A DNA stretch of 64,000 nucleotides, taken from assembly GCA_016195275.1 (NCBI GenBank), contig JACPZZ010000001.1, forward strand, positions 3,046 through 67,045, read 5' to 3'. Within the stretch, counting starts at the first letter, position 1; each line of letters starts with the position of its first letter. Made by a program: the position numbers and the translations under genes. Source of the DNA: Candidatus Aenigmatarchaeota archaeon (GTDB lineage: Archaea > Aenigmatarchaeota > Aenigmatarchaeia > JACPZZ01). The notes beneath the pieces were generated by a model that worked only from the letters and a program-made list of their open reading frames with translations, had not been told where the DNA came from and ran no database searches. Positions 3,700-64,000 of the stretch are shown one piece after another.

Positions 3700-3730
3700 G
3701 ACATAGATGCTCTGAGTATGCATCTATGTC
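3700..3730. repeat. 11-bp-stem hairpin 12 nt upstream of tRNA-Val(UAC)
   Basis: GACATAGATGC-tctgagtat-GCATCTATGTC. Confidence 0.7.
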
Positions 3731-3815: not shown

Positions 3816-3894
3816 CACCCCAAAACTAAGAGAGATTCCGCCGATGCGGAACTTGAATTAAATAAGTAAGGGAAAGGTAGACCGGTAGGAGACC

Positions 3895-3917
3895 GAAACA
3901 TACCTCTTGTATGTTTC
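3895..3917. repeat. GAAACAT/ATGTTTC hairpin about 10 nt upstream of tRNA-Ala
   Basis: GAAACATA-cctcttg-TATGTTTC. It belongs to the same arm family as the hairpins at 12833..13012 and 61780..61816. Confidence 0.65.
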
Positions 3918-3927
3918 AGTTTGAGCC

Positions 3928-4022
3928 GGGCCGGTAGATCAACGGTAGATCGCCACATTGGCATAAGGGAAAGAAAACTTCCAGAATTGTGGAGGCTTCG
4001 GGTTCGAATCCCGACCGGTCCA
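3928..4022 (+). tRNA. tRNA-Ala (anticodon GGC) with a canonical 23-nt intron (3964..3986, position 37/38)
   Basis: The acceptor GGGCCGG/CCGGTCC carries the G3:U70 Ala identity pair. The anticodon arm is CCACA TTGGCA^T...AA^T TGTGG. The bulge-helix-bulge reads TTGG|CA^T|AAG...CTT|CCAG|AA^T. The T arm is TCGGG TTCGAAT CCCGA. Confidence 0.85.
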
Positions 4023-4025
4023 AAT

Positions 4026-4151
4026 AAGCCTTCATAGGAAATCATAGATTTCCTATGCACGAAAATCTATGATTTTCGTTGTCTTTCGAAAGAAAGCCTT
4101 AACAGCGAAAATCAACGGATTTTCGCGTGTAGGAAACTAAAAGTTTCCTAC
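4026..4151. repeat. array of four short hairpins (GAAA/TTTC arm family) forming the 3' trailer of tRNA-Ala
   Basis: CATAGGAAATC-ata-GATTTCCTATG (4033..4057). CGAAAATC-tat-GATTTTCG (4060..4078). CGAAAATC-aacg-GATTTTCG (4106..4125). GTAGGAAAC-taaaa-GTTTCCTAC (4129..4151). Confidence 0.8.
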
Positions 4152-4170
4152 AGGGAAATGACGACACCCC

Positions 4171-6716: not shown

Positions 6717-6733
6717 CATCCTCCCACCACTAC

Positions 6734-6779
6734 ACAGGAAATCGTTGATTTCCTGTGCACGAAAACCATTGGGTTTTCG
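6734..6779. repeat. double-hairpin repeat, same family as 4033..4078 and 12608..12654
   Basis: ACAGGAAATC-gtt-GATTTCCTGT GCA CGAAAACC-att-GGGTTTTCG, directly after the stop codon of the 5412..6716 ORF. Confidence 0.8.
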
Positions 6780-7040
6780 TTGAAGCGTGTGGGCTTCCTG
6801 CGAGAGCGAAGTTGTATATCAGCCTACATCTTTCGGAGAGGTCTGACAGGACTGATTCCTGTTCTTCTGTTGGATTTATTTTTATCTGTTGCGTCAGTTG
6901 CATTACATCCCCTTTTGTTCTATGATGTATTTCTCTATTAGTTTATCCGAGATATGTCCGTGAGTTGAGACAAAATAGCTCCTTGTTTACGGTTCGCTCT
7001 CATCCCACCCGTAAACGGCGTGGATTTCCCGCTCACATTG

Positions 7041-8744: not shown

Positions 8745-8840
8745 GGTTTAAATAAACGCGCAAGGAAACAATATATTACGGGTAGTTTAGAGTGTGCATG
8801 ACCTTTTCCAAAAAGGTCACTCAAAAGAGAATGTGAAAAA

Positions 8841-10259
8841 ATGCGATTTGCTATATTGGGAATAATTTTAGCCGTTATCGTTTCCGGATGCACCGACACT
8901 ACCAACGCATCAACAGGAACGGGCGGATCTGTTGTGATAAAATCATTTTCCGCTGACGAGACAAACATACTCGGCAATGACAAAGTAACACTGACTGCGG
9001 AAATAGAAAACACGGGCGATTCCAGAGCAACGGCTATTACGCTGCAGTTGCTTGAATTGGATGTAAAATGCACTGGGGCGGCCGTAACCGGCTGTGGTGA
9101 TTCTACACCAACGCAATGGGGCATAATTTCTGGGGATGTGTCAAAACAAATAAAATCCGGCCTTAGAATATCAACACCTGGCGAACAGACTGTCCCGATA
9201 CAAAACACGTGGAGGGTGCAGGCCCCCAAGATTCCCGCGAACATCGTGCAAACTTACGATGCGAAGACCAGAGTTTCTTACACCTATTCTACGTCCGCTT
9301 TGAAGCAGATAACAGTGATCACTTATGACGAATACCAGCGTGCCAAGGCTAAAGGAGAAACGTTCCCTGTCACTACAACAAAGTCTTCCAACGGTCCGTT
9401 GGGAATAGACGTCAAGGTTAATGAGCCTGTCAAGATAGAGGGTGGGACAACTAGTTTCATACTTACAATAATCGTTAACAATCTTGCAAATGGGTTCACA
9501 TTCACGGCCGGAACAGATGCAAATTTGCTAGCTAACAGGGACTGGATCAATGTCAACATTACGCTTCCGTCTGGACTTACAATGCTGGATACCGGGGATT
9601 GTACAACAATAACACGGCCCGGAGGCCTTGATGCACAACTTACCAGCAAGGGCAAGGCGTTTACGCTGTCCTGTGAGGTAAGCGCTACCGCACCAGCCGT
9701 TTCAACTGCCAGAACAGTTATCGTAGGAACCCAGTATGGCTATTTCACGGATTCTGCTAAGGTGAGCATAACCGTTACCGGAAAAACCAGTTACATTGTT
9801 GTACCGCCTGGACAGACACCACCTGCGGGCGGCGTTCCGGTTACACCAACACCTGGAGGTGTATTGGCTGATGTAACGCCGCCGTCGCCTGTGAAAGATA
9901 TTGCCACTACAAACCCTGTAAAGGAAACGAATGCGCAGGGCTTGGCTACAGGCAAATGGCTGACCACCTTAACCTTCACACAACCGGACGACAACGTAGC
10001 TGTTACAGCTTTTGAAATAGTGGTTGCCAAGAAAGACGCGCCCGGATTCCAGACACCAACCGCTGATAACTGGGCTGCGTTTGCCAAATATGCAACACCG
10101 CCGACTCCACAGAGCACAGGCAAACAGATAGCTGTAAGCAATGTGGTTTTGGATGGCAATACGCCTTACATTTTCTGTGTACGCGCAAAAGACGCTGCAG
10201 GCGGCCTTTCGTCTCTGGCCAATGCCTGCATAGAGAGGGTGACAACACAGGCCGGTTAA
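8841..10259 (+). CDS. secreted lipobox protein, paralogous N-terminus to 7872..8744
   Basis: MRFAILGIILAVIVSGC-TDT has the same lipobox context. It is followed by beta-rich domains and a Pro/Thr-rich linker (PPGQTPPAGGVPVTPTPGG). Confidence 0.65.
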   Translation: MRFAILGIILAVIVSGCTDTTNASTGTGGSVVIKSFSADETNILGNDKVTLTAEIENTGDSRATAITLQLLELDVKCTGAAVTGCGDSTPTQWGIISGDVSKQIKSGLRISTPGEQTVPIQNTWRVQAPKIPANIVQTYDAKTRVSYTYSTSALKQITVITYDEYQRAKAKGETFPVTTTKSSNGPLGIDVKVNEPVKIEGGTTSFILTIIVNNLANGFTFTAGTDANLLANRDWINVNITLPSGLTMLDTGDCTTITRPGGLDAQLTSKGKAFTLSCEVSATAPAVSTARTVIVGTQYGYFTDSAKVSITVTGKTSYIVVPPGQTPPAGGVPVTPTPGGVLADVTPPSPVKDIATTNPVKETNAQGLATGKWLTTLTFTQPDDNVAVTAFEIVVAKKDAPGFQTPTADNWAAFAKYATPPTPQSTGKQIAVSNVVLDGNTPYIFCVRAKDAAGGLSSLANACIERVTTQAG

Positions 10260-11559: not shown

Positions 11560-12450
11560 TTAAATTGCCAGGTTGTATTTTGCTGGGTAAAACCAGTTCC
11601 CATCAGATTTTACATCCTCTGTTTTGATAACGAAACCTTTTGAATTGTATTTATGCAACATGTTTCGTATATGGCCTATTTTTCTTCCTAATAGCGGTAC
11701 CAGATCATTTGCTGTGAAATATCCCTTTGACTCTTGGATACTTCTCATGGAGGAGAAATAAATTTCGTTCACATGTTTTCTAGGAAACATTGACAGCTTT
11801 TTCAGGCCCACCAATTTATTAAGTTTATTACGCTTTTTTATGTGGCGCAAATTCAACATTTCGTTTAAACGTTCCAACCTCTCGAAAGAATTAATCTGTA
11901 TCTGCCAGCTTTTCCTCCAGACCCCGTTGGCGTGGCGGTATCGTCCATGCTGGTAAACCGAGCATTCGATGCCTATTTTTGACAGCAGCGTTCTAATATC
12001 ACAAATTAAATTGGACTGGCTTTCGCCTTCGACCACACATAACTTTATTCTTATGTAGTTGGCGTGCATGTTTACGGTTCCCTCATCGTCGATGATCTGT
12101 GATAAGAACTCCGCTATCTTGCTTTTGTTTAAACTGAATATGAATCCCGGCACGTGTGGGTTGTTTTCGACCTTCCTTCCAGGAATTAGTCCTATGTTTT
12201 CCAGACCTTTACCATATCTTGTTTGGTAAATAGATACGATCTTAACATCAGAATTTTTTGATTTCCTTCTTATGCTATATTTTAAATCTTTTCCAAAAAC
12301 ATTTTTAGCGTCCTTAATAAATCCGTAGATTAACCTACTATTAGAATTTGCATAATATGTTCTTCTCAGCCTATCCAAACAACCGTCGCCTAAAATGGCC
12401 CCGATTAATCTGACACCGCTTGTCGTGGTGAAATCAAATTCCTTTGGCAT
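11560..12450 (-). CDS. free-standing LAGLIDADG homing-endonuclease-like protein with a C-terminal winged-helix-like region
   Basis: Two LAGLIDADG blocks: VRLIGAILGDGCLD and IAEFLSQIIDDEGTVN. 296 aa, lying 3 nt from the EndoQ start and 71 nt from the tRNA-Ile 3' end. Confidence 0.75.
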   Translation of the reverse strand: MPKEFDFTTTSGVRLIGAILGDGCLDRLRRTYYANSNSRLIYGFIKDAKNVFGKDLKYSIRRKSKNSDVKIVSIYQTRYGKGLENIGLIPGRKVENNPHVPGFIFSLNKSKIAEFLSQIIDDEGTVNMHANYIRIKLCVVEGESQSNLICDIRTLLSKIGIECSVYQHGRYRHANGVWRKSWQIQINSFERLERLNEMLNLRHIKKRNKLNKLVGLKKLSMFPRKHVNEIYFSSMRSIQESKGYFTANDLVPLLGRKIGHIRNMLHKYNSKGFVIKTEDVKSDGNWFYPAKYNLAI

Positions 12451-12521: not shown

Positions 12522-12824
12522 TGGGCCCGACCGGAGTTTCCAAGCCTTTCCCTTTCCTGAAGGCCAAGGGTTTTCTTTTACCTTAAGGCTTTTCTTTTTC
12601 AAAGACAATGAAAACCATAGGTTTTCATGCATAGGAAATCATAGATTTCCTATGAAAGGCTTATTCGAACCGGCGACCTACGGCGTCTACGCAGCTTGAT
12701 CCGCAACGCCTTTGCGTTGCGCGCCTTATAAGACATGCGAGTTAGGAAATTGAAACCGGTGCATCCACAATAGCGCCGGTTTCCAGCTACAACACGTCGC
12801 TCTACCAAGCTGAGCTACAGGCCC
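12522..12824 (-). tRNA. tRNA-Ile (anticodon UAU) interrupted by three introns: 12794..12735 (60 nt, 29/30), 12725..12685 (41 nt, 37/38 or 38/39) and 12663..12536 (128 nt, T-loop 59/60)
   Basis: Exons join to a 74-nt cloverleaf: GGGCCTG TA GCTC AGCTTGGTA GAGC G ACGGT CTTATAA GCCGT AGGTC GCCGG TTCGAAT CCGGT CGGGCCC A. Intron 1 has a clean BHB (GCGA|CG^T ... TCGC|AT^G). Intron 3 is closed by AAGCCTTT/AAAGGCTT. Exon plus intron lengths sum exactly to 303 nt. Confidence 0.65.
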
Positions 12825-12832
12825 ACTGTTAA

Positions 12833-13012
12833 CTGAAACATATGCTGTTTGTATGCATATGTTTCTAGTTACTACGACTGAAGCATACCGAGGAAACTGA
12901 AACATACCGATACAGTATACGGTATGTTTCTAGCAGCCTATGCTTCCAGCTTTACGATATGCTTCTAGCTACTGACTGAAACATGCGCTATTGGTATTGC
13001 GCATGTTTCCAG
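12833..13012. repeat. array of CTGAARCAT...ATGYTTCYAG hairpins, partly nested, upstream of tRNA-Ile
   Basis: Hairpins at 12833..12868, 12897..12933 (nested inside the outer stem 12878..12949) and 12976..13012. An unpaired half-copy, CGATATGCTTCTAG, lies at 12955..12968. A conserved tail YAGYTRCTACG follows the copies. Confidence 0.8.
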
Positions 13013-13061
13013 TTGCTACGCTTTAATGAATTTCCGTCGCAAGCTTAAAAAGGGTTTGCTG

Positions 13062-16782: not shown

Positions 16783-16815
16783 TTTTTTACTCCACCATAT
16801 CTCTATATACTATAT

Positions 16816-16859
16816 AGTATATATACCCATTGGTATATATACTTACTGGTATATATACT
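16816..16859. promoter_or_regulatory. three copies of GGTATATATACT (one inverted, two direct) in the divergent transposase/ATPase intergenic region
   Basis: AGTATATATACC-catt-GGTATATATACT (a perfect 12-bp palindrome, 16816..16843), then tact-GGTATATATACT (16848..16859). Confidence 0.5.
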
Positions 16860-16888
16860 TGTAAGTTAATAATTTATGTTGATGCTAT

Positions 16889-20361: not shown

Positions 20362-20847
20362 TAAAGTTTAACTTTATCTCCGAGAAGTCCCCTTTCGCAA
20401 GATGGGAGATGAAGGCGAACCGTATCGGAACACCACCAAGCCATGCGATTTATAAATTACTCGTGCCGAATAATACCATTGTCCACACGCAGGCGTAAAC
20501 GGTCGCAATAACGAATTTGCATGCATTCATGTGTTGCGTAAAGCCGAACTTGGCAAGAACATGCAGACAAACTACAAAGATTCTGCGTGTAATCCGTGAA
20601 TCAGGAAGCTTTGCGCGAAACGTGAAGTAGTTCACATAACTCCGCTTTCAAGCATTCAAATGCGATATGATTGTGTGCGAGAGGATGTTTTTGGCGACTC
20701 CCACAGTGATCTTCTGGCAGAATGGGTTATTCTCGGGTTGGAGAGACGAACAGGTGATTTAGGCCTTTCGCGCCGGGATCTGAGCATGAAACAGTAGCGC
20801 TTGACCGGTTTTAAAGTATTTATTGGTAGAAATCAAAATGTAAGTTA

Positions 20848-35300: not shown

Positions 35301-35401
35301 CCTGTACATTAACCTTCGCTTTTATGCTTGGGTTTGGATAGAGTCACAGACTCCAGTACGGAAGCGTCAGGTTATCTGTTCGCTGACAGATTTTAGGGCT
35401 A

Positions 35402-35450
35402 TTAGAAAACCTTTGGTTTTCTAATTGAGAAAATCTAACGATTTTCTCAA
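35402..35450. repeat. double-hairpin repeat, second copy at 63246..63292
   Basis: TTAGAAAACC-ttt-GGTTTTCTAA TTGAGAAAATC-taac-GATTTTCTCAA. Confidence 0.8.
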
Positions 35451-35828
35451 CGGTCACCGTTGCTTGTCGCGGGCTTGTAAACTCAAGCCCGAGCCCGAAA
35501 ACATTATGGAGTTCCTATACCGTTTACGGTCAATTCATCTACGGACTAAAGTCCATAGTTTTATTGACCAATGATAAACAAATTCGGCTCGCCTACGTTG
35601 AACATACTGAACCAAGAGCGGGATAAATTAAACGTAAAAAATGATGTTGGGTTGACTTTCAAAGGCCAGAATTTTAGAGTCCCCTACACTAAAACTTGGG
35701 GGTGTGGATAAAGACAGCCCCCTGACAATGAAAGACGATTTCAATAGGATCGAAATAGCGATAAACATGGGCTCTTTTTCCAAAGAGTATGATATAAAAG
35801 TCGGGGACCAAATAACTGTGATGGTGAA

Positions 35829-42934: not shown

Positions 42935-43162
42935 AATATCTGTATTAAGTATGGGCTGCGCGGGTAATATATTTCCGTTTAATGGCGTTCCTCATCTATT
43001 ACAGCATGCTCGACCTGCAAAAATTGTCCGGCAGGCTTGACCATTCTATCCTGCTGGTCTTGATAATTTTTGTCTGGCTCGCATTCAGGTTGTACGACGC
43101 GGCAGGGTGAAAAACGTCATAAAATCGGACGCGCTCTGACCGGCCGCAGACTGCCAAACTAA

Positions 43163-43172
43163 GCTATTTAAC
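43163..43172 (+). promoter_or_regulatory. candidate TATA box for tRNA-Asn
   Basis: GCTATTTAAC lies about 35 nt upstream of the tRNA 5' end. Confidence 0.4.
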
Positions 43173-43202
43173 CTTACACCGGATAAACTAGATTCTAGTG
43201 CT

Positions 43203-43382
43203 GCCCCGGTAGCTCAGACTTCTTTGCCGCTTTAAAGGCAACGAGAAGGAGCAATAGGTAGAGCGCATGGCTGTTAACTGCGAAAGCTACGCTGTGTCTT
43301 TCGGTTGGCTGCGACCATGAGGTACTGTTATCGGGCTGCCCGAAAAACAGGCACAACGGTTGTTCGAGTCAACCCTGGGGCG
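43203..43382 (+). tRNA. tRNA-Asn (anticodon GUU) interrupted by three introns: 43218..43254 (37 nt, D-loop 15/16), 43277..43313 (37 nt, 37/38) and about 43324..43356 (33 nt, variable loop 47/48)
   Basis: The spliced 73-nt product is GCCCCGG TA GCTC AGTAGGTA GAGC G CATGG CTGTTAA CCATG AGGTC GGTTG TTCGAGT CAACC CTGGGGC G. The D-loop intron has a perfect BHB (GCTC|AG^A|CTTCT...AGAAG|GAGC|AA^T). Lengths sum exactly (73 + 107 = 180). Confidence 0.75.
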
Positions 43383-43385
43383 CAC

Positions 43386-43399
43386 TTATTTTTTTATTC
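43386..43399 (+). terminator. oligo-T terminator after tRNA-Asn
   Basis: TTATTTTTTTATTC begins 4 nt after the discriminator base. Confidence 0.6.
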
Positions 43400-43463
43400 T
43401 ATTAATAGACGGCCCAGACCCGTTGACCAACTAGTTAATTAAACCAGCTTTTTAACTTCTTTT

Positions 43464-60488: not shown

Positions 60489-61754
60489 ATGGCAAAACCT
60501 CACATCAACGTTGTTTTTGTCGGCCACGTAGATCACGGCAAATCCACTTTGGTAGGCCGAATTCTATACGACTCCGGAAAAATCCGCGAGGATGAGATTA
60601 ACAAATTAAAAGCCATTGCCAAAGAAGTCGGCAAAGAGACTTTCGAGTTTGCATTTGTGATGGACGTAACCAAAGAGGAAAGGGAACGAGGCGTCACGAT
60701 TGACATAAACTGGAAGGAAATTGACACGCCAAAAAACTACATAACTATTATCGATGCGCCCGGACACCGCGACTTCATAAAAAACATGATAACGGGCGCA
60801 AGCGATGCCGACGCTGCCGTATTGGTTGTTGATGCGGACGCGGGCTTGCAGCAGCAGACAAAAGAGCATCTTTTTTTAACGCGCACGCTTGGAATAGACC
60901 AGCTGGTTGTCGCGGTAAATAAAATGGACAAAGTAGGATATGCGAAAGACAAGTTTGATAGGATAAAAAACGAGATTGAAAAACTTTCGAAACTTGTCGG
61001 GTACCAAAACATCGATTTTATTCCCGTTTCCGCGTATGTCGGCGACAATGTTGTCAAGAAATCCGATAAATTGGGCTGGTACAACGGACTGACGCTGTTT
61101 GAGACGCTCGACAAATTAAAGGAACCGGAGAAGCCGGTTAACAAGCCTTTACGCATGCCTGTTGACAAAGTTTACAGCATCAAAGGCATTGGAACAGTTC
61201 CGATTGGCCGCATAGAGACCGGAAAAATGAAAATCGGTGACGCGGTAGCGTTTGAACCGTCCGGCGCAAGGGGCGAAGTCAAATCCATCGAGATGCATCA
61301 CAAACAGTTAACGGAAGCGCAGCCCGGAGACAACATCGGGTTTAACGTGAAAGGCGTTGACAACAAGCAGATCAAACGGGGCGATGTGATGGGAACACCT
61401 GCAAACGTTCCAACGGTTGTCGGCACAAAAGGCTGGATAGAAGCGAAGATTGTAGTTTTAGACCACCCAAACGGCATATCCGCAGGGCATGTGCCATCAA
61501 TGTTCGTACACACAGCCGACGTGCCTGTCCGCATCATCGAAATAATAAGCAGGATAGACCCCGCTTCCGGCCAGGAGGTTGAAAAAAACCCGAAGGTCGT
61601 AAAAACAGGCGAGGCCGCTATATTGAAAATGCAGCCGCTTGTGCCTGTGGTAATAGAAAAGTCCTCGTTCATACCGCAATTGTCCAGATTTGCGTTACGC
61701 GAGGGCGGGATGACAATAGCTGCGGGTGTATGCACAGAGATTAATAAAGGTTGA
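60489..61754 (+). CDS. tuf: translation elongation factor aEF-1 alpha
   Basis: VVFVGHVDHGKSTLVGRILY, IIDAPGHRDF, NKMD and SAY motifs. 421 aa. Confidence 0.97.
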   Translation: MAKPHINVVFVGHVDHGKSTLVGRILYDSGKIREDEINKLKAIAKEVGKETFEFAFVMDVTKEERERGVTIDINWKEIDTPKNYITIIDAPGHRDFIKNMITGASDADAAVLVVDADAGLQQQTKEHLFLTRTLGIDQLVVAVNKMDKVGYAKDKFDRIKNEIEKLSKLVGYQNIDFIPVSAYVGDNVVKKSDKLGWYNGLTLFETLDKLKEPEKPVNKPLRMPVDKVYSIKGIGTVPIGRIETGKMKIGDAVAFEPSGARGEVKSIEMHHKQLTEAQPGDNIGFNVKGVDNKQIKRGDVMGTPANVPTVVGTKGWIEAKIVVLDHPNGISAGHVPSMFVHTADVPVRIIEIISRIDPASGQEVEKNPKVVKTGEAAILKMQPLVPVVIEKSSFIPQLSRFALREGGMTIAAGVCTEINKG

Positions 61755-61779
61755 CAGCTAGAAACAGATGGGTATGGGG

Positions 61780-61816
61780 CTGAAACATATGCCATACGAA
61801 AAGCATATGTTTCTAG
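61780..61816. repeat. CTGAAACAT...ATGTTTCTAG hairpin 7 nt upstream of tRNA-Phe
   Basis: CTGAAACATATGC-catacgaaaa-GCATATGTTTC(T)AG followed by TTACGAC, then the tRNA. Confidence 0.8.
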
Positions 61817-61823
61817 TTACGAC

Positions 61824-61897
61824 GGGTTCGTAGCTCAATCCGGGAGAGTACACGGCTGAAGCCCGTGCTGTTGGGGGTTCAAATCCCTCCGAACCCA
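61824..61897 (+). tRNA. tRNA-Phe (anticodon GAA)
   Basis: GGGTTCG TA GCTC AATCCGGGA GAGT A CACGG CTGAAGC CCGTG CTGTT GGGGG TTCAAAT CCCTC CGAACCC A. Confidence 0.9.
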
Positions 61898-62117
61898 CTG
61901 TTTCATTTTCTCCTTCAATGAATTTTTTTACGTGGTCTGCTTCATTACTGCAACGCCCTAACAGGCTTGAGAACAAAACATTTGGCAGGCGTACCTTCCA
62001 ACACCAACTCAAGCGCCCGGTGTGCGCTGGAACCCACAACGATTCTTTGCTTGTTGATCTTACGGCAGATGCAAACGACGCGTTCTCCCTGAATGCCATC
62101 GTTGACACCTGTAAGAA

Positions 62118-62426
62118 TCATGCAATTACCTTCTTTTCCTTTACGAGCTCATCGATAATCTTGATCGCAGTCTCAATGTCTATCCCAACTTCAGACGCAA
62201 CTTCGTCAGCGTAGATATTAGGTTTTTGTTTAATAATTCTGAGAACCTCGGATTTTATTTTCGCGGTAGGAAGTTTCTTGGGAACAACGAACTCGAATTC
62301 GCGAAGCTTTGAACGCACTGCATCTCTCAAAAAATCCGCTACATTGAGATAATAGCCAAGCTTAACCAACTGCTCTAACCGCTCCCTTTCCGTCTCTGCT
62401 AAACGAACGCCGGACACTGCTTCCAT
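62118..62426 (-). CDS. ribbon-helix-helix (CopG-like) plus winged-helix transcriptional regulator
   Basis: VRLAETERERLEQLVKLGYYLNVADFLRDAVRSKL is an RHH. The C-terminus is IYADEVASEVGIDIETAIKIIDELVKEKKV. Confidence 0.55.
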   Translation of the reverse strand: MEAVSGVRLAETERERLEQLVKLGYYLNVADFLRDAVRSKLREFEFVVPKKLPTAKIKSEVLRIIKQKPNIYADEVASEVGIDIETAIKIIDELVKEKKVIA

Positions 62427-62601
62427 ACAAGCTTAATGGAACCGCTGCCTTAAATTGTTTACGGTTGTAAACGTCCGATACGAAGAGAATTGTGCCCGTG
62501 GCTATGACACTTCGGGACCAAGAGTTATGATCCTAGGGTAGAAAACGCCCCGAACTGCTCTTTTTATATTGAATTTTGGATATTCATTGATGGTTGTTAT
62601 T

Positions 62602-63213
62602 ATGCAGAAAAAAGAAGAATCGGAGCTGGAAGAGAACGCTTACGTAGAGGACAAAAGTTTTACAGAACTCGGTAAAGGTGAACCCCTAAAAGGCGAGCTG
62701 ATTGAAAACCGCGTCATAGTTTTTTCGCACCCTCTGCTGAATGAATTTTTTGAGCATGGATACGGAAAATTCGCGGAAAACCGCTTGGAACTTTCTTTTG
62801 TTGAAGCTCTTTACCTAGCTGACAAAGGAAAACTTGTTGTAACCGCCAAAGGCAGGAAATTGAATTTCGAAGAGCTTTTAAAAATTGCGAACGAAACGGA
62901 CAGGGAGATACACACAACTTACACTGTTTACAAGGATCTCCGTGAAAGAGGGTTAACGATCAAAACCGGTTACAAATTCGGCTGCCACTTCCGCGTTTAT
63001 GAGCGCGGGGTCAAAATAAAGCGCGGTCCGAAAGAAGCGCACGAACACACTAAATGGATTGTACACGCTGTTGCCGAAGATTACACATGCTCGTTCCCTG
63101 AATTGTCGCGCGCTGTGCGATTGGCGCATAACATACGCGCCAAAATGCTTTGGGCCGTGGTCGATCAGGAAAACGACGTGACGTACTACCAGATATTGCG
63201 GATCAAGCCGTGA
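62602..63213 (+). CDS. endA: tRNA-splicing endonuclease EndA (single catalytic-unit length, about 200 aa)
   Basis: YTVYKDLRERGLTIKTGYKFGCHFRVYERG...HEHTKWIVHAV...ELSRAVRLAHNIRAKMLWAVVD holds the catalytic Tyr/His/Lys regions. The ATG at 62590 and the TTG at 62569 are alternative starts. Confidence 0.85.
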   Translation: MQKKEESELEENAYVEDKSFTELGKGEPLKGELIENRVIVFSHPLLNEFFEHGYGKFAENRLELSFVEALYLADKGKLVVTAKGRKLNFEELLKIANETDREIHTTYTVYKDLRERGLTIKTGYKFGCHFRVYERGVKIKRGPKEAHEHTKWIVHAVAEDYTCSFPELSRAVRLAHNIRAKMLWAVVDQENDVTYYQILRIKP

Positions 63214-63229
63214 AACAGACAGTCATAAA

Positions 63230-63314
63230 CTGAAGCATATCGTAATTAGAAAACCTATGGTTTTCTAATTGAGAAAACAGCTGTTTTCTCAATACTGTAT
63301 CGATATGCTTCTAG
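63230..63314. repeat. nested hairpin element: the outer stem CTGAAGCATATCG/CGATATGCTTCTAG encloses the double hairpin 63246..63292
   Basis: The inner hairpins TTAGAAAACC-tat-GGTTTTCTAA and TTGAGAAAAC-agc-tGTTTTCTCAA match 35402..35450. The conserved tail TTGTTACG follows. Confidence 0.8.
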
Positions 63315-63317
63315 TTG

Positions 63318-64000
63318 TTACGCCTTCTCTGTTCTGCCGCCGATTTCCTTTTTCCCGGACAATAACGCCAGCATGGCATACAGGTTTAAAAAAATCTGCA
63401 ACCCTGAAAGGGCGACGAAGGAGGGCAAGGAAAATACCACGTCTTTTGGCTTTAGGAATTTTATGGCCGAACATAGGTATGTTATGAAGCCGGCAAGCGC
63501 GGCAAGCGCGAAATACTGGTTAGACGTTAAAATAAAAAGCGACATGAAGGCTGCTGAAATGGGGGGCACGTAACCGAACACTATTCCAAGCGGCGCCAGT
63601 GTAAACCAGTCTTTTAGCCTGAATTCACGCAACAGTTTGCTGATTTCTGCCTGCTCTCCAAGGGTCCACCTGAGCTGCTGCTTTAGGTACCATTTGAATT
63701 TTGGCGGGGCCTGTTCGCGGCATTTGGCATCTACAACGGAAACTTTTTTCCCGGCAAGGTAAAGCCGGAATGTCATGTTCGCGTCTTCCAAAACAGCCTT
63801 CCTGAAGCCGCCTATTGCATGCAAGGTTTTTTTGCTTATCACATAATTCTTTCCTTGTATTATTCCAGTGCCCAAAAAGCGCGAAAATACGTATTGTGCA
63901 TAGTTCGTGAACGCTGTTTGCAGCCTGAAAACCATGGCGGTTGGGGTTGAACCTTCTTCGACCGTAATGCCTGTGGCAACCCCGTGTTCGCCTATGGAAC
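63318..64000 (-). CDS. family 2 glycosyltransferase; the 5' end runs off the window
   Basis: EDANMTFRL...QQLRW is the GT2 ED and Q-x-x-RW pair, followed by C-terminal TM helices. The frame stays open upstream of the annotated Met to position 64000. Confidence 0.75.
   Translation of the reverse strand, partial: SIGEHGVATGITVEEGSTPTAMVFRLQTAFTNYAQYVFSRFLGTGIIQGKNYVISKKTLHAIGGFRKAVLEDANMTFRLYLAGKKVSVVDAKCREQAPPKFKWYLKQQLRWTLGEQAEISKLLREFRLKDWFTLAPLGIVFGYVPPISAAFMSLFILTSNQYFALAALAGFITYLCSAIKFLKPKDVVFSLPSFVALSGLQIFLNLYAMLALLSGKKEIGGRTEKA

Follow-up and report, generated by a model that had tools for sequence, protein, structure and literature searches.

The 64,000 nucleotides of DNA analysed here (the window) are archaeal. 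They encode aEF-1alpha (60489-61754) and the tRNA splicing endonuclease EndA (62590-63213), and the EF-1alpha is 84-87% identical to Candidatus Aenigmarchaeota MAG proteins. About 88% of the window is coding; the TATA box of EndA lies about 25 nt before its ATG, and promoters of this genome appear to abut the start codons. Hairpins of one recurring design (family 1) end a few nucleotides from the 5′ ends of three tRNA genes, with gaps of 8 nt for tRNA-Ile (at 12824), 7 nt for tRNA-Phe (at 61824) and 8 nt for tRNA-Ala (at 3928). The identities of these three neighbours, first proposed from the sequence alone, were borne out, for tRNA-Ala once its intron had been removed and for tRNA-Ile once three introns had been taken out by hand. 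The tRNA at 3928-4022 is tRNA-Ala(GGC) after removal of a canonical intron, and tRNA-Ile(UAU) has introns at about 12735-12794, 12685-12725 and 12536-12663, the third of which is located in the T-loop and carries hairpins of a second family (family 2). In its unspliced form tRNA-Ile(UAU) was detected neither by ARAGORN nor by Rfam, and the ortholog of the tRNA-Ala gene in the relative L002 is labelled Pro by standard tRNA finding. Hairpin insertions in this lineage can thus conceal tRNA genes from standard finders, which is of practical relevance for annotation.

Family-1 units measure 37-45 nt, and seven to eight of them are present in the 64-kb window. The repeat of about 45 nt consists of AA-CTGAARCAT, about 6 variable base pairs enclosing a loop, and ATGYTTC-Y-AG-TT, followed by a tail RYNACG. 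It is asymmetric, with a bulge on the 3′ arm and the tail on the 3′ side, and both sides are constant within the element. The motif CTGAARCAT-N8-38-ATGYTTC has six matches in the window where 0.01 are expected, and none of 100 dinucleotide shuffles of the window reached six. The hairpin positions listed in an earlier sequence-only reading all proved correct on reading the sequence, and their number is far above chance. That reading had also described foot and tail as conserved. This is supported. The exact tail (T/C)AG(T/C)T(A/G)(C/T)TACG occurs three times in the window (at 12866, 13010 and 63312), and the copy at 3895 has no tail; a tail with one mismatch precedes tRNA-Phe. The features are collected in Table 1.

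Table 1. Hairpin units and associated tRNA genes in the window, with the evidence on which each assignment is based (CM, covariance model).
Feature	Position	Strand	Basis
Variant leader hairpin GACATAGATGC..GCATCTATGTC + AG, 12 nt before tRNA-Val(UAC)	3700..3730	+	L002 leader compared
Short family-1 unit, 9-bp stem GAAACATAC	3894..3919	-	CM 36.3 bits on -
Family-2 module CATAGGAAATC.., ACGAAAATC.., GCGAAAATC.., TGTAGGAAACT.. in tRNA-Ala 3′ trailer	4030..4152	+	Homology (family D4)
tRNA-Ile(UAU), three introns	12522..12824	-	Hand-spliced sequence is tRNA-Ile(tat) by ARAGORN
Variant family-1 unit TTGAAACCGGTGC..GCGCCGGTTTCCAG + CTACAACACG, inside tRNA-Ile intron 1	12743..12796	+	CM
Family-1 unit 1, CTGAAACATATGC-loop-GCATATGTTTC-T-AG hairpin (12833-12868) + tail TTACTACG	12833..12876	+	CM 65.8 bits
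Composite unit	12878..12968	+	Sequence reading, folding; inner unit CM 52.7 bits
Family-1 unit 3, hairpin 12976-13012, inner stem ATGCGC/GCGCAT, tail TTGCTACG	12976..13020	+	CM 57.6 bits
Family-1 unit, hairpin 61780-61816 + tail TTACGAC	61780..61823	+	CM 50.5 bits; six orthologous leaders compared
tRNA-Phe	61824-61898	+ (unit strand)	Adjoins family-1 unit tail
Family-1 unit CTGAAGCATATCG..CGATATGCTTCTAG + TTGTTACG between convergent EndA and glycosyltransferase genes	63230..63322	+	L010 comparison

The region 12826-13030 holds an array that folds with z = -8 to -9 on either strand. The head of its first unit faces the 5′ end of tRNA-Ile, which is encoded on the opposite strand. The composite unit encloses a complete inner unit (12897-12933), and its outer 5′ arm CTGAAGCATA (12878-12887) can pair either with 12940-12949 or with 12957-12968, the latter being the partner favoured by RNAfold. 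An orphan 3′ arm with its tail (ATATGCTTCTAGCTAC) is found at 12957-12972. The covariance model added one copy that the earlier reading had missed, the variant unit inside tRNA-Ile intron 1 (30.4 bits on the + strand compared with 15.9 on the - strand), and no others in the window. At tRNA-Phe, the tail of the unit abuts G+1 at 61824, and a conserved, older 5′ arm CTAGAAACAGATG lies upstream of the unit at 61758-61770. The 11-bp hairpin upstream of tRNA-Val(UAC) was likewise confirmed.

Two of the copies differ from their first description. The one at 3895 has the position and the proximity to tRNA-Ala(GGC) ascribed to it, but it is in the opposite orientation, with its head towards the tRNA, and lacks both bulge and tail. 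The stem at 63230..63314, correctly placed and described as an outer stem, is an ordinary unit into whose loop, at GTA|TAC, a 48-nt family-2 double hairpin (about 63244-63293) has been inserted; no target duplication was seen at this insertion. An orthologous copy in L010 (880-960) is uninterrupted.

Family 2 (CATAGGAAATC.., ACGAAAAYC..) tends towards tRNA trailers, the T-loop intron of tRNA-Ile and the 3′ ends of genes. The module in the tRNA-Ala trailer has homologs at 12600-12663, which is the first part of the T-loop intron, and at 6730-6790, and related hairpins are found at 35401-35450. An in-frame insertion of a family-2 double hairpin lengthens NMD3 of L020 by 17 residues, which three orthologs do not have; such an insertion into coding sequence is documented for family 2 and not for family 1. 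Several hairpin-repeat families, family 1 among them, have expanded in this sub-clade; GAAA-type 5′ arms are common to several of the families, and we also observed the variants GACTCATAC and CTTTT-cca-AAAAG. The density of perfect hairpins of at least 9 bp is 0.47 per kb within the clade, compared with 0.033 in distant relatives and about 0.05 in shuffled sequence. A sample gathered through EF-1alpha, not through the motif, gave 0.42 hairpins per kb, mostly in the 8-10% of the DNA that is non-coding.

We aligned 18 clean units from 8 genomes, which share a 13-bp stem with one bulged 3′ pyrimidine. Of the stem cells in this alignment, 95.3% are paired, and both sides have changed in 8 of the 13 stem pairs. 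Double changes fill 39 cells, compared with 12.2 in column shuffles, and none of 500 shuffles reached the observed value; when the partner columns were slid by 1-3 positions, pairing fell to 27-45%. These results substantiate the compensatory changes that had been noticed in the inner stem. A covariance model, as proposed at that time, was built from the alignment. The conclusion drawn from those changes, selection for an RNA function, is weakened by two further observations, although the covariation itself is real. G.U pairs are very few, with one wobble within the 10 core pairs of all 18 units and nearly all remaining pairs Watson-Crick, and the loops occur in “flip” and “flop” forms that are reverse complements of each other among different copies. 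Stems and loops of this kind point to palindrome dynamics at the DNA level rather than to old, selected RNA helices. The non-Watson-Crick pairs (5 T.G versus 3 A.C/C.A) were too few to assign a functional strand from the asymmetry between G.U and A.C, and this approach was dropped.

No Rfam 15 family matches the family-1 hairpins. At the gathering score only tRNAs were returned, and the two further matches at E <= 0.1 are far below that score and overlap no family-1 hairpin. H/ACA or C/D sRNAs, K-turns and CRISPR repeats were ruled out: the hairpins lack ACA and C/D boxes, spacers are missing and the Rfam search was negative.

The repeat is restricted to a sub-clade of Candidatus Aenigmatarchaeota (DPANN archaea), of which about 280 kb from a handful of MAGs were examined. 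Covariance model R1 finds matches in the window and in its close relatives L002-L005 and L008-L010, finds weaker variants in four further clade genomes (L020-L026), and finds none in 90 kb of distant Aenigmatarchaeota-like contigs whose EndA is 53-60% identical. A scan of GTDB for the motif plus tail, with one genome per species, picked up six loci from five Aenigmatarchaeota MAGs and, in addition, two bacterial contigs. The latter we attribute to chance because these matches are non-palindromic and equal in number to the expected chance count. IMG/VR contained no match to the repeat, and a viral origin was rejected on this ground.

Within the window, a family-1 element is present in 3 of the 5 spacers upstream of tRNA genes but in only 1 of 41 other intergenic spacers (hypergeometric p ~0.0025), and one further copy outside these spacers is located in a tRNA intron. 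The proximity to tRNA genes noted earlier is therefore non-random within the window. The wider motif search suggested at the time produced matches in the clade in addition to this enrichment, but the copies are not confined to tRNA leaders. Some lie in tRNA trailers (L002 at 4168, and L009) and others between protein genes (63230 in the window, 642 and 3124 in L008, 172 and 880 in L010). The element is enriched at tRNA genes, yet it is not leader-specific. Orientation within contigs gave no usable signal of replication: five of six independent comparisons agree in strand, which is not significant, and GC skew, considered as an indicator of replication direction, tracks the gene strand only.

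Orthologous sites of close relatives differ in the presence of the element, copies are nested and in tandem, and blocks have moved between loci. A 51-nt unit follows tRNA-Val(CAC) in L002 but not in the window, and the leader hairpin of tRNA-Val(UAC) in the window is absent in L002, with the TATA box conserved. An array of about 150 nt between the 3′ end of tRNA-Phe and the EndA TATA box is present in L009 and L010 and absent in L026. The tRNA-Ile leader array of the window is homologous over about 145 nt to this array in L009, which occupies a different locus. At tRNA-Asn, L026 alone has a 34-nt hairpin with its tail inserted exactly at +1, as judged against L020 and L022, and no target duplication was seen there. 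Six orthologous spacers between EF-1alpha and tRNA-Phe all contain strong hairpins, but their families, numbers and sequences differ, which indicates rapid turnover. Near-identical units are also found at unrelated loci of different genomes. None of the insertions compared revealed a target-site duplication or a defined target sequence.

A source of mobility was sought among the transposases. A phmmer search of about 205 kb, a fraction of each genome, with the TnpA proteins of IS608 and ISDra2, both confirmed as Pfam Y1_Tnp, yielded no match with an E-value below 0.4. One TnpB was found, in L020, and the hairpins at the ends of its element are unrelated to the repeats. A link to IS200/IS605 was dropped for these two reasons, and no transposase or nuclease tied to the elements was found in the clade sequence examined.

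On balance, the hairpins are probably small, non-autonomous palindromic repeats of the REP, MITE or RPE type, which are mobile or duplicative and persist where the transcript is discarded. A MITE-like element near tRNA genes was among the functions listed in the sequence-only reading, and it is the one that fits best. HUH transposases (REP/RAYT, IS200/IS605) recognise folded single strands, and their elements have a conserved foot, bulge and tail. By analogy, the conserved foot, bulge and tail of the family-1 unit, combined with its free inner stem, match the anatomy of such HUH-recognised elements. On the folded single strand, the propagation machinery would then recognise the foot, the one bulged pyrimidine and the tail beside the stem, and recognition of this kind would keep the pairing while the inner stem varies.

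Copies would persist at those sites where the genome tolerates them, presumably tRNA 5′ leaders (removed by RNase P), introns (removed by EndA), trailers and the 3′ ends of convergent genes. In a genome that is so densely coding, and whose promoters appear to abut the start codons, these would be the permissive sites, and tolerance of discarded transcript parts would account for the association with tRNA genes. The near-constant gap to +1 would at least in part be the element's own tail: TTACGAC or TTGTGAC abuts G+1 of the tRNA, and in the one clean filled/empty pair, at tRNA-Asn, the insertion abuts +1 exactly. This exact abutment hints that insertion may be targeted to the boundaries of tRNA genes. 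An RNA-level benefit, such as capping the 3′ end of the upstream mRNA or keeping the leader off the tRNA body, would be secondary, if there is any.

The hairpins might instead be a cis-acting RNA element of pre-tRNA 5′ leaders, a stem about 8-10 nt before +1 that aids RNase P or another nuclease forming the 5′ end, or protects or insulates the precursor; this we judge to be unlikely, though with an appreciable chance of being right. Of the 14 clade tRNAs with a leader hairpin, 12 show a distance of 9-12 nt between the end of the stem and +1, all six tRNA-Phe leaders have kept one, and the differences between the window and L009 at this site are compensatory. TATA-like boxes about 25-35 nt upstream of the foot, as read from the sequence, would place the hairpin in the primary transcript. 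However, copies are also found in introns, in trailers and in spacers between protein genes, and leader copies occur in both orientations, with the tail next to the tRNA at tRNA-Phe of the window and tRNA-Ala of L002 and the head next to it at tRNA-Ile and tRNA-Ala of the window, in L005 and at tRNA-Gln of L003. Such mixed orientation argues against an RNA signal read by a processing enzyme, for which a single orientation would be expected.

Nor is the element conserved at orthologs. No such hairpin is present at tRNA-Val(UAC) of L002, at tRNA-Asn of L020 and L022 or at tRNA-Val(CAC) of the window, all tRNAs of more distant relatives lack them, other orthologs carry different hairpins, and arrays of 3-4 units have no obvious function as a ruler. 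Because orthologous tRNAs lack the element, a dedicated role in tRNA processing is unlikely, and 5′-leader processing or stability, suggested earlier as one possible function, is not supported as the main one. The regular spacing to +1 is nevertheless tighter than neutral insertion predicts. In head-first copies the 8-nt spacer is not conserved, so the regularity is only partly accounted for; it is the strongest argument for a functional or targeting component. Together with the presence of a hairpin in all six tRNA-Phe leaders, this tight spacing could reflect a function.

It is quite improbable that the hairpins are non-mobile, host-selected RNA stem-loops that arise locally and cap transcript ends as stabilisers, punctuation or terminator-like structures. 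The near-identical units at unrelated loci of different genomes do not agree with local origin, and the asymmetric unit lies in both orientations relative to transcription; the scarcity of G.U pairs and the in-frame position of the sister family within a coding sequence also count against it. Its appeal comes from the distribution of family-1 and family-2 hairpins in the window, which occupy 3 of 7 convergent but 0 of 9 divergent spacers between coding sequences and directly follow the stop codons of EF-1alpha and EndA. This distribution resembles that of bacterial REPs, which stabilise mRNA (PMC3733652).

Template-switch (quasi-palindrome) errors, which could create or perfect inverted repeats in situ as a mutational by-product, free of selection or transposition, would produce the almost perfectly Watson-Crick stems, the flip and flop loops and the extra arms duplicated in leaders (for example 61758-61770 and 12957-12968). 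As a full account they are very hard to credit, since they leave unexplained the foot, bulge and tail conserved across unrelated loci and genomes, the 145-nt block common to different loci, the restriction to one clade and the roughly tenfold enrichment of hairpins. Least probable of all, and barely worth entertaining, are DNA-level palindromes bound by a protein, such as promoter or regulator sites for tRNA transcription, which would suit the position between TATA-like boxes and +1 and a hairpin centre that, in several genes, reads as lying about 26 nt before +1, but not the free variation of inner stem and loop with pairing kept, the copies in introns and at gene 3′ ends, or the clear TATA boxes upstream of the hairpins, which are orthologous to those of hairpin-free genes. 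These boxes also rule out a promoter in which the hairpin centre would be the TATA box and the 5′ arm the BRE.

If the hairpins are small mobile repeats tolerated in discarded RNA, they may have supplied the material from which new tRNA introns arose in this lineage, a tentative proposal that we consider possible but doubtful. Because EndA or RNase P would remove it, the cell would tolerate a mobile hairpin that inserted within a tRNA gene or directly at its border, and such insertions would turn into introns or leaders. Introns with a family-1 hairpin at their core are found in tRNA-Ile (intron 1 of the window), tRNA-Gln (L003), tRNA-Asn (L020 and L026) and one further tRNA (L002, 2331-2390), and a module of about 47-95 nt is common to the T-loop intron of tRNA-Ile and the trailer of tRNA-Ala. 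The tRNA-Asn(GUU) orthologs of three close relatives differ in both the number and the position of their introns. In L020 and L026, a canonical intron is built round a family-1 hairpin, whereas the gene of L022 lacks an intron at the canonical site and has introns in the D-arm and the T-arm instead. In minimum free energy (MFE) folds of four intron contexts, the hairpin forms the distal helix of the intron; these folds do not resolve a canonical 3-4-3 bulge-helix-bulge (BHB) motif, the structure cut by EndA, from the foot and flanks of the unit itself.

The searchable literature yielded no account of repeats of this kind in Aenigmatarchaeota or other DPANN archaea. If our reading is correct, a genome-reduced DPANN archaeon, in which little selfish DNA would be expected, harbours a REP/MITE-like system of palindromic repeats in an unusual niche, the discarded parts of tRNA precursors. 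Introns have been acquired at many positions of archaeal tRNA genes, and how this came about is a long-standing question. As the same modules are found in leaders, trailers, intergenic DNA and introns, and as their presence differs among relatives, the route by which introns are gained becomes testable, and the repeat may help to explain it.

Among known systems, bacterial REPs are extragenic and located mostly downstream of genes, with clusters that fold into larger structures and occasional copies inside genes (PMC3733652). All of these traits recur in the present repeats, which also resemble REPs in being imperfect palindromes of 35-45 nt with a conserved foot, a stem bulge and a conserved unpaired flank. 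The definition of REPs as short (20-40 nt), repeated extragenic palindromes applies here as well, with units of 37-45 nt and a hairpin density in the clade about ten times that of shuffled sequence and of distant relatives. REPs carry a conserved unpaired GTAG (or CGTC) tag; read as its reverse complement, the tail gives CGTAG(Y)AA in roughly half the units, while other units have CGTAAC, CGTCGT or CGTGGC. In REPs this GTAG abuts the stem, whereas here it is offset by 3 nt, is not universal and is absent from the nested copies. The present repeats further differ in their archaeal (DPANN) host, in their niche in tRNA leaders and introns, and in arrays that are tandem or nested rather than inverted pairs. 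REPs are mobilised by RAYT Y1 transposases, whose genes the repeats typically flank, whereas the 205 kb searched here, a fraction of each genome, contained no Y1 match, and membership of the REP/RAYT system cannot be claimed.

With Rickettsia palindromic elements (RPEs) and other prokaryotic MITEs the hairpins share their small size, their palindromic, non-autonomous nature and their spread within one lineage, and they are polymorphic at orthologous sites of close relatives. RPEs also insert in frame into protein genes, as the sister family has done in NMD3 of L020. RPEs and MITEs usually measure 100-500 bp and have terminal inverted repeats and target duplications. The present units, in contrast, are 37-52 nt long, no target duplication was seen at 63230 or at the tRNA-Asn +1 insertion, and the ends of the TnpB element of L020, which would be expected to match if it were a parent IS, are unrelated.

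Transposing tRNA introns of Thermoproteales place related sequences at different positions and in different tRNAs (reviewed in PMC4090602). Here, too, orthologous tRNAs differ in intron number and position, but the sequence shared among introns is a defined hairpin repeat, copies of which lie outside tRNA genes as well, in leaders, trailers, intergenic DNA and one coding sequence. The GC clusters of yeast mitochondria (mobile palindromic hairpins; PMC4478555) are 30-50 nt long and located between genes and in introns. They share with the present repeats the tandem or nested arrays and the rapid turnover of presence and absence among close relatives, and differ from them in host, in base composition and in a TAG-type target duplication that was not demonstrated here. 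Judged by these analogies, the repeats of this archaeal lineage would work most like bacterial REPs, Rickettsia RPEs and yeast mitochondrial GC clusters.

A second family of hairpin repeats, with sequences of the types CATAGGAAATC.., ACGAAAAYC.. and ATTAGAAAACC.., is present in the window. Its hairpins are found at the 3' ends of genes, in a T-loop intron and a tRNA trailer, and also within a unit of the first family, the ~45-nt palindromic repeat, where they occupy the loop. A homologous module is common to the tRNA-Ala trailer and the T-loop intron of tRNA-Ile. Hairpins of this second family stand at the start of non-coding stretch 35301-35740, one of three stretches of 440-530 nt that are unusually long for such a dense genome and in which Rfam returned no match.

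Coding sequence is affected as well. In L020, a contig of a related genome, a second-family double hairpin of 51 nt sits within the NMD3 gene as an in-frame insertion and adds 17 residues that three orthologs lack. On the same contig, a TnpB (OrfB_IS605/Cas12f-like) gene separates the GGR gene from that of PheRS, an insertion relative to L022, and the TnpB ORF contains hairpins resembling the second family.

Small hairpins of a third type, xxCTTTT-cca-AAAAGxx, are repeated across genomes and occupy intergenic DNA, a tRNA trailer and a tRNA intron. Separately, overlapping AT-rich palindromes (GTATATATAC repeats) cluster in a divergent intergenic region of the window and bear no relation to the hairpin families.

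Coordinates of the features discussed (window or contig of a related genome)
Feature	Location	Strand	Remark
tRNA-Ile(UAU)	window 12522-12824	-	three introns, one ~128 nt in T-loop
LAGLIDADG ORF	window 11560-12450	-	296 aa
tRNA-Asn(GUU)	L020 9201-9319		canonical intron only
tRNA-Asn(GUU)	L026 about 9098-9243		D-loop and canonical introns
tRNA-Asn(GUU)	L022 about 9766-9908		D-arm and T-arm introns
Second-family hairpins	window 4030-4152, 6730-6790, 12600-12663, 35401-35450, 63244-63293		
NMD3 double hairpin	L020 3471-3522		
TnpB gene	L020 18539-19798		
Hairpins in TnpB	L020 19386-19431		
xxCTTTT-cca-AAAAGxx	window 8799-8819; L002 5219; L003 2262; L005 1086; L022 6262		
AT-rich palindromes	window 16795-16871		
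Non-coding stretches	window 35301-35740, 42935-43463, 20362-20847		
Small ORFs	window 61899-62568	-	
EndA	window 62590-63213	+	207 aa

The intron-rich tRNA-Ile(UAU) gene received no call at all from ARAGORN or Rfam, and ARAGORN wrongly called the L002 ortholog of tRNA-Ala(GGC) as Pro(TGG). Directly downstream of tRNA-Ile lies a free-standing LAGLIDADG-domain ORF; L024, a further related contig, carries another, and its topoisomerase VI subunit B contains an intein. Among three close relatives (L020, L026 and L022), orthologous tRNA-Asn(GUU) genes vary in both the number and the position of their introns.

Two small ORFs separate tRNA-Phe from the tRNA splicing endonuclease gene, EndA, in the window. 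For one of them there is a weak match to RHH/MarR. The second overlaps tRNA-Phe as listed and matches nothing in Pfam. L009 and L026 lack both ORFs, and there the EndA promoter comes directly after tRNA-Phe. The length of EndA itself is that of the strict homotetrameric type. Despite this small size, introns in the tRNAs here occupy non-canonical positions (anticodon stem, T-loop and D-arm), for which a broad-specificity enzyme is normally required.
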